From IMG/VR virus record IMGVR_UViG_3300029777_000247, positions 1 through 64,000 of that record: 64,000 bases of DNA; one strand, given 5' to 3'. Shown here one piece after another: positions 38,163 to 43,384 of this stretch. The notes beneath the pieces were generated by a model, which was given only the letters and a program-made list of their open reading frames with translations, searched no databases and was not told where the DNA came from. Each line of letters begins with the position of its first letter. Positions within the stretch are counted from its first letter, which is position 1. Origin of the DNA: a virus. Position numbers and translations under genes: made by a program.

Positions 38163-38239
38163 TGGTGGGACAGGAGAGATTCGAACTCCCGACCAAGCGG
38201 TTATGAGCCGCCAGCTCTGACCAACTGAGCTACTATCCC
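38163..38239 (-). tRNA. tRNA-Met (anticodon CAT; could be Ile2 if lysidinylated), CCA encoded
   Basis: Manual cloverleaf: acceptor GGGATAG/CTGTCCC, D GCTC-AGTTGGTCA-GAGC, anticodon loop CTCATAA, T-arm GGGAGTTCGAATCTCTC. Confidence 0.75.
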
Positions 38240-38267
38240 ATGCAAACGCCGACTTTCGTCGGCGCGA

Positions 38268-38335
38268 TGCCAGCGGAGGAATCGAACCTCATCTCTCGGT
38301 GTTTCCGAGCGCTTTTACCATTAAGCTATCCAGCC
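38268..38335 (-). pseudogene. degenerate tRNA-like element
   Basis: Good T-arm GAGGTTCGATTCCTC and D-arm GCTT-AATGGTA-AAGC, but acceptor strands GGCTGGA / CGCTGGC do not pair and the anticodon loop has no U33. Confidence 0.35.
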
Positions 38336-38466
38336 GTATACCTCAGAATTTAATTCTCACTATCCAAGCTACGTCGCGTTCCAATATGATCACTCTTGGC
38401 AACCATGTCGTAACATATAGGTTCCTTTCGGCTCTGAGTAACCGGTGCAGCGTAAGGGGCTGCGTG

Positions 38467-38542
38467 TGGAGCGACTGACGGGGGACGATCCCGCAACATT
38501 CAGATTGGAAATCTGACGCTCTGCCAATTGAACTACAGTCGC
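38467..38542 (-). tRNA. tRNA-Gly (anticodon TCC), CCA encoded
   Basis: Acceptor GCGACTG/CAGTCGC; anticodon stem TCAGA/TCTGA with loop TTTCCAA; non-canonical T-loop ATCGTCC. Confidence 0.65.
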
Positions 38543-38723
38543 ATAAGAACCAACCTAGCAACTGGCATCACTAGGCTGGGATGCTCGGCTTGCAAAGGCA
38601 CGCTGCACTCTTTCGAGCGAGCCGAGAATAACGTACATGGATAATTTCGTTAGCCCCTTTCTGGGTGGTATCTTGCACAGGCGCGGCCGGATCTGACCGC
38701 TAAAGATCCTACCCATACAAGAT

Positions 38724-38798
38724 TGGAGCAGCGAAAGGTAGTCGAAACCTCATCCTCAGCTTGGAAGGCTGATGTACTAGCCGTTGTACGACCGCTGC
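38724..38798 (-). tRNA. tRNA-Gly (anticodon TCC), second copy with a different sequence, CCA encoded
   Basis: Acceptor GCAGCGG/TCGCTGC; D GTAC-AACGGCTA-GTAC; anticodon loop CTTCCAA; T-arm GAGGTTTCGACTACCTT. Confidence 0.65.
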
Positions 38799-38805
38799 AT
38801 GAAAA

Positions 38806-41913: not shown

Positions 41914-41928
41914 CTCCCTTTCTAATAG

Positions 41929-41949
41929 GTATCCTGTGTTATATAGTTA
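41929..41949 (-). promoter_or_regulatory. conserved promoter-like motif copy e upstream of the Pnkp-like gene
   Basis: Minus-strand read TAACTATATAACACAGGATACCTATTAGAAAGGGAGATGCAGATG: -10-like element, then RBS and start. Confidence 0.5.
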
Positions 41950-41961
41950 GCATGTTAAAAT

Positions 41962-41988
41962 GAAGGGGCCGAAGCCCCCTGTTTTTAA
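41962..41988. terminator. GC hairpin with flanking T-runs, a likely intrinsic terminator (bidirectional form)
   Basis: GGGGCCGAAGCCCC stem-loop immediately after the stop of gene 41985..42911, followed by T-rich tracts on both strands. Confidence 0.5.
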
Positions 41989-42911
41989 TTTTCATGGAAA
42001 TATTCAACCCAACCTTTATATCCTTGCCGGAAACTAAGATAGGCAACTTTACTGCACTTTCTTCCGATAATGTCCGCAAGAGGACCTTTACCATTTCCGA
42101 AACTAAGTTCTGCAAGATTAAATTTTGGATGAGTTTTACAGTAGTTATAAACCTTGATATACTCACAATTTCTGGCTAAATATCTTTGATCTAAGGTTTT
42201 TGAATGATGCCTTTTTTCGAGGATATCGTTCAACCTCGAAAAATAGACATGAATTGAAATTATAGACGTCTTTGGATCACTGTTTACACCGGGTTTATCC
42301 TTCGTTTTGCGTAGGATATAATCGCCATTCATGACATAAAATGTTCTATAACCGCTCTTATTGGGGGCATCATACTGTTTCATCTCGTAACATTGCTTGA
42401 TAATATCCATTAACCTTGCGTCAACATCAGTCTTATCAAGAACGGTATTAGATTCAAAATCCACATCGTTAATTGTTAGATTAGAAATCTCATCGGAAGT
42501 AAGACCAATCCAGTACAAAACAGCAATTACGTTCATACGAATCTGATATGGCTCTTCGTACTTATTTAAGAAGTCAACAAATTCGTCAACCGACGCAAAA
42601 TAACTGTCATTGTACATATCATCTGCGCTTACATCGCTCTCTGAAAAGTCAGCCAGATCATACATGCTTGTTTCGTTTTCACTTTTGATGTAGCCTGTGA
42701 TTATTGACTTCACATTTTTAAACGAACGACTCGAATTCACCCAATTATATTTGGCAAACATCTTTACGAAATCATCTTTTGTGAAGTCAAACAACTCATA
42801 CCCACGCTCGGCCTCGTAATCCATGACGTGACGCATCGTCGATGCAACAAACTCACCGCTTCTATCAGAATACTTTTCGGCAAAAGCTTTGATTTTTTCT
42901 TCAGTAAGCAT
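41985..42911 (-). CDS. hypothetical protein
   Basis: 308-aa ORF. Confidence 0.35.
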   Translation of the reverse strand: MLTEEKIKAFAEKYSDRSGEFVASTMRHVMDYEAERGYELFDFTKDDFVKMFAKYNWVNSSRSFKNVKSIITGYIKSENETSMYDLADFSESDVSADDMYNDSYFASVDEFVDFLNKYEEPYQIRMNVIAVLYWIGLTSDEISNLTINDVDFESNTVLDKTDVDARLMDIIKQCYEMKQYDAPNKSGYRTFYVMNGDYILRKTKDKPGVNSDPKTSIISIHVYFSRLNDILEKRHHSKTLDQRYLARNCEYIKVYNYCKTHPKFNLAELSFGNGKGPLADIIGRKCSKVAYLSFRQGYKGWVEYFHEN

Positions 42912-42964
42912 AGTGGCACACTCCTTCTTATTATATGTAGTGTACCATTAAACCTTATAAAAAA

Positions 42965-43384
42965 TCAAGCAAATGCGGCAAAATTCTGAAATTCCATGGT
43001 ATGTTGTACGCCGCTCAGGAATGCTGCAAGCAAAAACGGTTCATCCTTGCATCTTGCCATTGCGATCATATTCATCTGACGCTCCGACAAGACACCAAGT
43101 TTTTTAATGAACTGTCCTTTGTTAAGTGTATCAGTCTCTTCACATAGAACGATACTATCAACCTCTAGGAAATCACAATCTTCCTTTGAGAGTAGAACAT
43201 GAACCGGAGAGCGCTTGTATATTCTGGAAGACAACGGATTCCCTTTAATTGTTGGACTAAAGAAGTTGCGCTTATTGTTGCTCGTCACAACGAACGGTCG
43301 AATACCGCGCTGCTGATGACCTGTCGCATTGGATAGATCAACCAACCAAACCTCTCCGACCTTTGGGTCAATATTGTTGTCCAT
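42965..43384 (-). CDS. MazF/PemK/Kid-family endoribonuclease-like protein
   Basis: N-terminal KVGEVWLVDLSNATGHQQRGIRPFVVTS matches the PemK/MazF signature (G.i..v.f.p..G.E..g.RPalVvs); own promoter and RBS; no obvious antitoxin ORF. Confidence 0.6.
   Translation of the reverse strand: MDNNIDPKVGEVWLVDLSNATGHQQRGIRPFVVTSNNKRNFFSPTIKGNPLSSRIYKRSPVHVLLSKEDCDFLEVDSIVLCEETDTLNKGQFIKKLGVLSERQMNMIAMARCKDEPFLLAAFLSGVQHTMEFQNFAAFA

Follow-up and report, generated by a model that had tools for sequence, protein, structure and literature searches.

A MazF-MrpR-like gene pair, a single-chain RNA-repair enzyme and a tRNA array as adjacent, probably separate units in an SPbeta-like human gut phage

We analysed a stretch of viral DNA of 64,000 nucleotides (positions 1 to 64,000 of IMG/VR record IMGVR_UViG_3300029777_000247; hereafter, the window), in which an array of tRNA genes, the gene of a predicted trifunctional RNA-repair enzyme and the gene of a predicted MazF-type endoribonuclease lie close together between positions 38163 and 43384. 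This region probably consists of three adjacent, seemingly independent transcription units, namely a lysogeny unit, a free-standing RNA-repair gene and the tRNA array, and not of one operon. The conserved unit is the pair of MazF and an MrpR-like integrase-fold protein, not MazF together with the RNA ligase, and the repair enzyme belongs to a large, already known family of phage proteins whose ligase is of the Trl1/Rnl1 type, rather than being a bacterial Pnkp without its Hen1 partner. A previous reading of the same DNA from its letters (hereafter, the sequence-only reading) had combined the tRNAs, the enzyme and MazF into one tRNA damage and repair module; the tRNAs, the three-domain open reading frame (ORF) and MazF all exist where that reading had placed them, and its interpretation is, overall, partly supported.

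In the direction of transcription, the genes follow each other in the order RlaP, a 208-aa ORF, a 108-aa ORF, MazF, a 308-aa ORF, the three-domain enzyme and the tRNAs, with the tRNAs, the enzyme, the 308-aa gene and MazF all on the minus strand. The minus-strand orientation of the whole region places the tRNAs 3' (downstream) of the 739-aa enzyme ORF, and not upstream of it as had been described. Nor is the array fused to that ORF: the two are separated by a spacer of 117 nt, which contains a promoter-like site between the ligase stop codon and the first tRNA (TAGACA-18-TAGAAT, 39655..39684, minus strand, 10/12 consensus match). MazF had been located 1 kb further on, but the intervening sequence is not empty and holds the 308-aa gene (41985-42911), which went unmentioned. 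Between this MrpR-like gene and the ligase gene lies a terminator-like hairpin (GGGGGC-UUCG-GCCCC followed by UCAUUUU, 41964..41980, minus strand), and another promoter-like site is found just upstream of MazF (TTGACT-17-TATAAT, 43428..43456, minus strand, 11/12 consensus match). These promoter- and terminator-like sites agree with the gene-order data, although alone they are weak evidence.

For the comparison of gene order, we identified 254 loci with a full-length homologue of the enzyme, which were clustered at 70% identity into 24 lineages with enough flanking sequence. A tRNA array directly downstream of the ligase was present in 2 of the 24 lineages, any tRNA within 8 kb of the ligase in 7, MazF within 4.5 kb upstream of the ligase in 4, and RlaP within 8 kb in 4. 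None of these features was seen in the largest lineage, which comprises 93 loci of Lachnospiraceae prophages, nor does any of them adjoin the ligase gene in SPbetaL2, Alicyclobacillus phage KKP_3916 or Twort. The idea of a single module is at odds with these frequencies (across the wider family, 2/24 lineages for the tRNA array and 4/24 for MazF) and with the promoter- and terminator-like sites that split the region. The two lineages that do have the array are the clade of the window and a lineage with the loci L164 and L165 (here and below, L numbers designate loci or lineages of the sample); both arrays begin with Leu-CAA and Leu-TAA, so that they may share one origin. Within the window clade, the order MazF-MrpR-ligase-tRNA was invariant in all 71 loci with enough flank (71/71), which reflects shared descent.

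These data bear directly on the alternative that the tRNAs, the repair enzyme and MazF form one counter-defence module, in which spare tRNAs would replace host tRNAs that anticodon nucleases of the host have destroyed, and the enzyme, together with RlaP, would re-ligate those that have been cut. We consider this rather unlikely for the region as a whole. The use of phage tRNAs and RNA repair against host attack on tRNA is an established published hypothesis (PMC7824862, PMC10264068), and to that extent the general idea of the sequence-only reading, that such genes counter tRNA-targeting defence, agrees with the literature. The gene order kept in all 71 close relatives, the second lineage in which Leu-CAA and Leu-TAA directly follow the ligase (L164, L165), and RlaP, a ligase partner, 2.7 kb upstream all speak for a common function, and the codons read by the tRNAs are not favoured by the phage (CTA 6%, TTA 10%, ATA 11%), which weakens simple codon compensation as an explanation of the array. 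However, the adjacency is limited to the 2 lineages named above, perhaps through one ancestral event, there is no tRNA within 8 kb of the ligase in 17 of 24 lineages, the ligase is absent from phages that keep the MazF-MrpR-tRNA arrangement, a promoter-like site of their own precedes the tRNAs in the spacer after the ligase, and RlaP is encoded in just a third of close relatives.

Whereas the association of MazF with the ligase is confined to a few lineages, MazF is directly followed by the MrpR-like gene in 70 of the 71 close relatives. The same adjacency was found in L086, in the L087 group and in L128, in L084 by called gene coordinates, and, in two more lineages without any ligase, in six loci where a tRNA-Met comes after the repressor gene. 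It holds across two MazF subtypes and across MrpR-like proteins with identities of 13-27%. MazF, which the sequence-only reading had assigned to the repair module, is instead paired with the MrpR-like gene that this reading overlooked.

The 308-aa protein (41985..42911, minus strand) was tentatively assigned to the MrpR/SroF (YopR) family of integrase-fold proteins from matches to the MrpR_N_CB domain, profile links and phrog_5830. Two of its homologues match MrpR_N_CB above the Pfam cut-off of 27 bits (4e-6, 27.7 bits, and 1.7e-7, 32.2 bits), and nearly all of them have precomputed matches to MrpR_C_cat, which are marked as weak. The protein of the window matches the integrase family phrog_5830 (4e-10), and an iterated profile that started from it reaches the true MrpR of SPbetaL2 (487 bits to MrpR_C_cat), a phage in which this gene lies 4 kb upstream of the ligase homologue. 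Two further matches were not counted: a profile match to YopR, which was inflated by the presence of the SPbetaL2 MrpR in the profile, and a match to 9rd5 (4e-16), obtained with a profile that likewise contained this protein. The two invariant residues of the MrpR-like alignment lie 3 and 5 residues away from MrpR G136 and Y304 and are not taken to correspond to them. The 308-aa protein is a probable lysogeny repressor; in SPbeta-like phages, the role of master repressor is played by MrpR (YopR, SroF), which has an integrase fold (PMC10516654; bioRxiv 10.1101/2025.11.27.690993). The ratio of nonsynonymous to synonymous substitution rates (dN/dS) of the 308-aa gene is 0.108, with dS = 0.73 vs. 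about 0.27; the repressor alleles, which are 71-100% identical, are much older, as expected for immunity types.

In the Bacillus arbitrium phages SPbeta and phi3T, the MazF of the host degrades most phage mRNAs but spares the sroF operon, and thereby favours lysogeny (bioRxiv 10.1101/2025.11.27.690993; PMC10769878; PMC10516654). The region studied here resembles this circuit (sroA-F, MrpR/SroF, host MazEF, arbitrium) in that an MrpR-like integrase-fold protein borders an SPbeta-like replication module and in that a MazF RNase is linked to this protein. It differs from the circuit in that MazF, host-encoded in Bacillus, is encoded here by the phage directly upstream of the repressor gene, and in that the window shows no recognisable genes for AimR, AimP, AimX or YosL-like proteins. 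We infer that MazF would be co-transcribed with the integrase-fold repressor, from its own promoter to the hairpin terminator, and that the pair would act in the control of lysis and lysogeny, such that these gut phages would carry their own MazF for the switch.

The MazF gene (42965..43384, minus strand) encodes a predicted MazF/PemK endoribonuclease of a phage subfamily (PemK_toxin PF02452, 2e-19), and its product also matches S. aureus MazF (5e-14) and B. subtilis EndoA (5e-11) in sequence. Among the 23 members of the subfamily, R29 is invariant and the equivalent of B. subtilis T48 is always Ser or Thr; these positions correspond to the catalytic residues reported in the study of structure 4MDX. 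A C-terminal extension of about 25 aa is conserved in the subfamily. The structural model (mean predicted local distance difference test score, pLDDT, 88) superposes on S. aureus and B. subtilis MazF with template modelling (TM) scores of 0.82-0.86 at 2.2-2.5 A. The identification of a MazF/PemK-like endoribonuclease in the sequence-only reading thus holds, with a predicted MazF fold, the catalytic Arg in place and Ser or Thr as the second catalytic residue. The dN/dS of MazF, 0.024, is the lowest in the region.

Upstream of MazF, at a distance of 92 nt, lies the 108-aa ORF (43476..43802, minus strand; dN/dS 0.145), which has its own promoter-like site apart from that of MazF (TTGACG-16-TATAAT, 43845..43872, minus strand, 11/12 consensus match). 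Pfam, NCBIfam, PHROG and PADLOC gave no match to this ORF. A small ORF of 101-144 aa is always located 92-117 nt upstream of this MazF subfamily (window, L084, L086, L266, L269). These ORFs are fast-evolving, and no homology was detected among those of different lineages (hhalign probabilities <6%; nothing significant with BLASTP). By its position, the 108-aa ORF is a candidate antitoxin or antirepressor. The sequence-only reading had noted no visible antitoxin for MazF, and a canonical MazE-type gene is indeed absent from the operon: the 108-aa ORF has no family match and the downstream gene is MrpR-like. A non-canonical antitoxin is conceivable.

The small upstream ORF also enters the alternative that MazF is an ordinary prophage moron, i.e., the toxin of a toxin-antitoxin system of type II or one that acts in abortive infection or superinfection exclusion, with the 108-aa or the MrpR-like protein as its antitoxin and with no link to lysogeny or repair. 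Besides the constant presence of the ORF about 92-117 nt upstream of this MazF subfamily, such a role is suggested by the 76 phage records that carry MazF-like 'growth inhibitor' genes, many of them from gut Lachnospiraceae (phrog_1936), and by Perkons and CB457P1, which carry MazF without an MrpR-like gene. Against it, the upstream ORFs are non-homologous between lineages and match no antitoxin family, and a comparison of PADLOC defence models with the ligase, MrpR-like, MazF, 108-aa, 208-aa and RlaP proteins gave no match. Moreover, an unrelated moron would hardly explain why MazF and the MrpR-like gene stay adjacent although the MrpR-like proteins share just 13-27% identity and MazF is of two subtypes, and we regard this explanation as unlikely.

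Several observations weigh against the division of the region into three units with a MazF-MrpR-like lysogeny pair. The match of the 308-aa protein itself to MrpR_N_CB is weak (6e-4, 20.8 bits, below the Pfam cut-off of 27), as is the hhalign comparison with MrpR (E = 0.0036), a PDB search with the 308-aa protein alone yielded a best match of 0.045 (a Tn1549-type Int), and the assignment to MrpR otherwise depends on transitive profile links. The MazF-like genes of the cultured phages Perkons and CB457P1 have no MrpR-like neighbour, and no AimR-like arbitrium gene was found in the window. Likewise, no depletion of UACAU, the motif cut by B. subtilis and S. aureus MazF, was seen in the MazF-MrpR unit or in the ligase gene. 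The promoter and terminator calls are consensus matches, the total number of which equals the shuffled expectation, and the perfectly conserved order within the window clade makes functional coupling possible there.

The second unit is the 739-aa ORF (39694..41913, minus strand), for which Pfam, phrog_8238, PDB sequence search, AlphaFold and Foldseek all predict a trifunctional RNA end-healing and sealing enzyme. Translation probably starts at 41907, since an AGGGAG ribosome-binding site lies 6 nt before this second ATG and the representative of the database cluster has 737 aa. In Pfam, residues 6-144 match AAA_33 (2.6e-22), residues 177-355 match Metallophos (3e-15) and residues 460-672 match RNA_lig_T4_1 (PF09511, 4.5e-41) over profile positions 1-227 of 227. 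The resulting layout is a P-loop 5'-OH polynucleotide kinase (about 3-160), a 2',3'-phosphoesterase of lambda-phosphatase type (about 175-400), a linker (403-416) and, at about 418-739, an ATP-dependent RNA ligase that is Trl1/Rnl1-like; the AlphaFold model has a pLDDT of 88.7, with the linker disordered. The conservation of the active sites was assessed in 30 homologues at 49-97% identity and in a second set of 16 sequences that includes those of Twort and SPbeta-like phages, so that the homologues overall cover identities of 37-97%. Invariant among the 30 homologues are the P-loop G11-K17, D34 and R37 of the kinase, D183/H185 (GDxHG), D209/D212/R213 (GDxxDRG), N241/H242 (GNH), H302 and H351 of the phosphoesterase, and K508/N510/G511 (KxNG), E570, E653-V656 (EGFV) and K666/K668 (KxK) of the ligase; the invariant catalytic residues of the 16-sequence set agree with these. 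The kinase, metallophosphatase and ligase domains that the sequence-only reading had recognised are thus corroborated by Pfam matches and invariant active-site motifs. The enzyme has a dN/dS of 0.046 within the clade.

Comparison of the enzyme to phage protein families shows an end-to-end match to phrog_8238 (2.1e-226, residues 3-737 on profile positions 1-734 of 737). The full-length enzyme is encoded in 113 annotated phage genomes, e.g., those of Twort, SPbeta-like Bacillus phages and Brochothrix A9; databases contain at least 4,691 homologues with the same architecture, and the family occurs in at least 474 IMG/VR contigs and in 361 bacterial species genomes. The view that such a protein without Hen1 is unusual in a phage is not compatible with these numbers. 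The phrog_8238 members of Staphylococcus phage Twort (ORF008), the SPbeta-like Bacillus phages SPbetaL2, Goe11 and Goe12, Brochothrix A9 (gp147) and Alicyclobacillus KKP_3916, all large phages of Firmicutes, are 37-44% identical to the window enzyme across 99% of its length and agree with it in the order of the three domains and in the invariant catalytic residues, but unlike the window gene, theirs are not adjacent to a tRNA array, MazF or RlaP. A search of the literature for a biochemical study of any phrog_8238 member found none.

The sequence-only reading had attributed to the ORF the architecture of bacterial Pnkp, and this applies to one half of the protein. The P-loop kinase and the central binuclear metallophosphoesterase resemble those of Pnkp in Pfam matches, predicted folds and invariant motifs; Foldseek matches of the model include the kinase of Clostridium thermocellum Pnkp (CthPnk; 4gp7, 4jst) at TM 0.72-0.77, lambda phosphatase at 0.71 and the CthPnkp phosphatase (4j6o) at 0.65. 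The ligase, however, is Trl1/Rnl1-like. Compared to the NCBIfam equivalog TIGR04075, for which the curated cut-off is 750 bits, the enzyme scores 79 bits, with residues 5-305 alone covered, and no entry for the CthPnkp ligase domain appears among the best 60 of 105 PDB sequence matches or the top 50 fold matches. The identity as a bacterial Pnkp was rejected on these grounds, together with the matches of the ligase region to the ligase domain of Trl1 (Trl1-LIG) and to T4 Rnl1. In the PDB sequence search (phmmer), Trl1 is the first match of the ligase half (9qw7, 3e-18, residues 436-733), and the alignment extends to enzyme residue 733 and to residue 352 of 384 in 9qw7, with a GIIxLRNEF motif common to both. 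In Foldseek, Trl1-LIG was found at TM 0.64-0.69 over about 355-373 columns (targets of 372-395 residues), followed by T4 Rnl1 at TM 0.56 with a root mean square deviation of 8-10 A. By the criterion of the Rnl6 (Trl1-LIG) clade, which is a distinctive C-terminal domain appended to the adenylyltransferase (PMC6379707), the phage ligase groups with Trl1, judging from the alignment and the predicted fold.

Given that the ligase domain is of the fungal Trl1/T4 Rnl1 type, a Hen1 partner is not expected. We searched about 45 ORFs of the window, including every minus-strand ORF of at least 250 aa, for repair genes. Neither hen1 nor genes for RtcB, Tpt1, a 2H phosphoesterase or a CCA-adding enzyme were found among these ORFs, in which RlaP is the sole extra repair gene and a C5-cytosine DNA methyltransferase the sole methyltransferase.

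With CthPnkp, the window enzyme shares the order kinase-metallophosphatase-ligase and the closest solved relatives of its kinase and phosphatase, whereas the Rnl4 ligase of CthPnkp is not found in it and the window encodes no Hen1. With the fungal, plant and kinetoplastid Trl1 ligases (Rnl6), it shares the best PDB sequence and fold match, including the C-terminal domain, and the GIIxLRNEF motif; however, the LIG-KIN-CPD (ligase, kinase, cyclic phosphodiesterase) order of Trl1 is reversed in the phage protein, the 3'-healing domain of Trl1 is a 2H cyclic phosphodiesterase rather than a metallophosphatase, and no Tpt1 was found in the window. The predicted chemistry, i.e., phosphorylation of the 5' end, removal of the 2',3'-phosphate and ATP-dependent sealing, is also that of T4 Pnkp plus Rnl1, and the Rnl1-type adenylyltransferase with its N-terminal sub-domain (PF09511) is common to both systems (T4 Rnl1, E about 2e-6, TM 0.56). 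In T4, these functions are split between two polypeptides as opposed to the single chain of the window phage, the phosphatase is a DxDxT acyl-phosphatase as opposed to a binuclear metallophosphoesterase, and the C-terminal ligase domain is a tRNA-specificity domain as opposed to a Trl1-like one.

The residues that correspond to the 2'-PO4 site of Trl1 are partly conserved: Asn150 corresponds to N510 and His227 to H579, both invariant, and Arg337 to the invariant K676, whereas the position of Arg334 is not conserved, with Lys in the window enzyme and Asn in most members. In CthPnkp, H189 is needed for a 2'-OH rather than a 2'-PO4 end (PMC1920235). The equivalent residue, H185, is kept in the window enzyme, so that T4-like 3'-OH/2'-OH ends would be expected by analogy.

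From the domain identities, the intact active sites and the purifying selection described above, we infer the likely activities and substrates of the enzyme. The kinase would phosphorylate a 5'-OH end, the binuclear metallophosphoesterase would open a 2',3'-cyclic phosphate and remove the phosphate to leave a 3'-OH, and the ligase, adenylylated on Lys508, would activate the 5'-phosphate and seal the break. The substrates would be stem-loop RNAs, above all tRNA anticodon loops, that have been cut by metal-independent RNases; host anticodon nucleases, HEPN or CRISPR-associated RNases and MazF-type toxins, all of which leave matching ends, are the candidate cutters. The protein is very likely an RNA, probably a tRNA, healing-and-sealing enzyme. 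Two other ORFs of the window have phosphatase-like features, namely a second, stand-alone calcineurin-like phosphoesterase of 254 aa (25242-26006, minus strand) and a 172-aa ORF that weakly resembles dual-specificity phosphatases (46616-47134, minus strand).

The view of an RNA-healing function is strengthened by the RlaP gene encoded nearby (44578..45330, minus strand). The product is a Pol-beta nucleotidyltransferase of the RlaP family (PF10127, 1.6e-18, 67.8 bits vs. a cut-off of 23; phrog_388, 5e-44), with the GS...DxD motif of Pol-beta enzymes in the translation (GGSHAYGTNVEGSDLDIRG). It is located 2.7 kb upstream of the repair enzyme and occupies that position in 24 of the 71 close relatives. 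RlaP enzymes assist in RNA repair by adding 1-2 nt to the 3' ends of damaged RNA (PMC12776372) and are known partners of RNA ligases (PMC7824862; PMC12776372); T4 also encodes an RlaP, NrdC.11 (PMC12776372). In the window phage, RlaP may restore nucleotides that are lost at broken ends.

The chemistry predicted for the enzyme also fits a scenario of self-inflicted damage and repair, in which the phage MazF cuts host and phage RNA, resulting in arrest or shut-off, the enzyme reverses the cuts in selected RNAs (tRNA or rRNA) on regrowth, and the phage tRNAs serve as cleavage-resistant spares. MazF cleavage leaves ends with a 2',3'-cyclic phosphate and with a 5'-OH, the very ends on which a kinase-phosphatase-ligase acts. 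MazF-mt9 of M. tuberculosis cleaves tRNAs, and in E. coli, RtcB reportedly reverses the MazF cleavage of 16S rRNA (work of Temmel et al. from 2017). At least 4 lineages, the ligases of which share just 50-53% identity, have MazF, the MrpR-like gene and the ligase side by side, a canonical MazE was not found, and no gene of the region is as strongly constrained as MazF (dN/dS 0.024). Nevertheless, we consider this scenario unlikely, given that MazF-MrpR pairs without the ligase exist, that the ligase occurs without MazF in 18 of 24 lineages, that a hairpin separates the MazF-MrpR unit from the ligase, and that no clear cleavage motif was detected. In an unbiased scan of 5-mers, UUACA and CUGGU reached p values of about 0.003, which fall short of significance once the number of tested 5-mers is taken into account; in the minus-strand sense, 38163-43802 contains no UUACA, where 7.9 would be expected at the rate of the whole window, but this does not survive correction for multiple testing.

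The third unit is the tRNA array. We identified 8 tRNAs between 38163 and 39576 on the minus strand with ARAGORN, all of which score 52-67 bits with the Rfam tRNA model (threshold, 29 bits) and have a normal cloverleaf, and 6 of the 8 have an encoded CCA end. In the order of transcription, these are Leu(CAA) (39492..39576; 53 bits; first of the array, CCA encoded), Leu(TAA) (39208..39292), Pro(TGG) (39126..39201), Gln(TTG) (38987..39057), Leu(TAG) (38900..38981), two copies of Gly(TCC) (38724..38798 and 38467..38542, the second in a slot that is variable among relatives) and a tRNA with a CAT anticodon that was called as Met (38163..38239). A degenerate tRNA-like remnant (38268..38334, minus strand; Rfam 30 bits vs. 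the threshold of 29) was not called by ARAGORN, and its acceptor stem and anticodon loop are defective as judged by eye. The count given in the sequence-only reading, nine tRNAs plus a degenerate copy, is accordingly revised to 8 sound tRNAs plus 1 remnant.

The CAT tRNA is not of the initiator type, because it has a G1-C72 pair and lacks the GGG/CCC anticodon stem. In 4 related loci, its slot is occupied by a tRNA-Ile(TAT) with a similar acceptor and D arm; given this replacement by Ile-UAU, the CAT tRNA probably reads AUA, i.e., it is probably an AUA-reading tRNA of the Ile2 type. The distal tRNA slots are variable in the window clade (e.g., L008 near 11701), where 18 loci have a tRNA-like 'His(ATG)' gene and 10 loci have CAT tRNAs of 92 nt; some CAT tRNAs have an extra arm of about 20 nt. 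In several lineages, with or without a ligase gene, a single tRNA is located 60-100 nt after the stop codon of the MrpR-like gene (L266, L269-L272 and L291, about 7585-8110; the L087, L090, L094 and L098 groups), the types being Met-CAT, Arg-ACG, Ser-TGA and an odd 'His-ATG'.

In some relatives, genes for a 691-aa and a 127-aa protein are present between the MrpR-like gene and the ligase (L055 5458-7931; L068-L070, L083), and in others, the gene of an HNH endonuclease (198 aa), probably a homing endonuclease, lies between tRNA-Leu(CAA) and tRNA-Leu(TAA) (L018 10767-11363; L021, L029, others). Together with the variable distal tRNA slots, these genes identify the region as an insertion hot spot.

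With its own promoter-like site, the eight-tRNA array would supplement or replace host tRNAs. That it provides ordinary translational supplementation of isoacceptors that are scarce in the host, and lies beside the ligase by chance at an accessory hot spot, is a serious possibility, if one to which we would give somewhat less than an even chance. Seven of the 8 tRNAs read A-ending codons or whole family boxes via U34, the insertions just described make a chance neighbourhood plausible, and a single tRNA follows the MrpR-like gene by 63-70 nt in other lineages. Conversely, the phage itself uses the cognate codons sparingly: their shares within the codon family are 6% for CTA, 10% for TTA, 11% for ATA, 32% for CAA, 28% for CCA and 27% for GGA. 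With the cognate A-ending codons thus used sparingly, simple codon matching to the phage's own genes is unsupported.

Downstream of the tRNAs, the window encodes a C5-cytosine DNA methyltransferase (36550-37932, minus strand), in which the S-adenosylmethionine-binding motif I (LFDGIGGF) is at the C-terminus and the match begins at about position 75 of the profile; from this arrangement of motifs, the enzyme looks circularly permuted. Elsewhere, the window contains genes for a PolC-type DNA polymerase, a DnaB-like helicase, a primase, a RecJ-like exonuclease, an ExoV/Dda-type helicase, NrdD, ThyX and a dUTPase, as well as YorF- and AAA_24-type proteins. The genomes of relatives encode YorF, YorH and other SPbeta signature proteins, such that YorF, AAA_24, YorH, DnaB and the PolC-type polymerase form an SPbeta-like backbone across the window and its relatives. 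The same enzyme was found at 88-100% identity in 80 IMG/VR contigs, many of which are 110-139 kb long, and homologues of the 308-aa protein are located on metagenome scaffolds of 200-784 kb; scaffolds of 204-273 kb carry the prophage (ENA ERZ28665492 scaffold_22 and ERZ28616696 scaffold_74). Members of the enzyme family are also present in isolate genomes. The SPbeta signature genes and the homologues on scaffolds of this size point to a temperate phage of SPbeta-like type, abundant in samples from the human gut and about 125-139 kb in size, of which the window is the lysogeny-proximal and replication region. A Clostridia species is the probable host; distant members of the enzyme family occur mainly in Lachnospiraceae genomes. 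A search of 185,579 species genomes for a close relative of the phage found none, and among 50,697 phage records searched for near-identical DNA, tRNA fragments alone matched.

The three units could yet be linked in function. Gut SPbeta-like phages might have taken over the MazF arm of an arbitrium-type switch, with a constrained MazF of their own, extended at the C-terminus, hard-wired upstream of the MrpR/SroF repressor, while the enzyme and the tRNAs would restore translation after MazF damage. We consider this proposal speculative and improbable in its entirety. If true, phages would be a large reservoir of a ligase type that has so far been described as fungal-specific, which would bear on the origin of the eukaryotic tRNA ligase and on 2'-phosphate-dependent sealing in bacteria.

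Taken together, the most interesting outcomes of this analysis are the conserved MazF-MrpR pairing and the Trl1-like ligase, and the pairing may exceed the enzyme in interest. Enzymes of the single-chain kinase-phosphatase-ligase family are very frequent among Firmicutes phages, including Twort and its relatives and the prophages of dominant gut Lachnospiraceae. The combination of Pnkp-type healing with Trl1-type sealing in one chain could show how RNA repair pathways assemble, and the enzyme bears on whether 2'-phosphate-dependent ligation occurs outside eukaryotes. The tight linkage of a phage-encoded MazF to an MrpR/SroF-type repressor gene suggests that the MazF-based lysogeny logic of the Bacillus arbitrium phages is widespread, and self-contained, in phages of the human gut.

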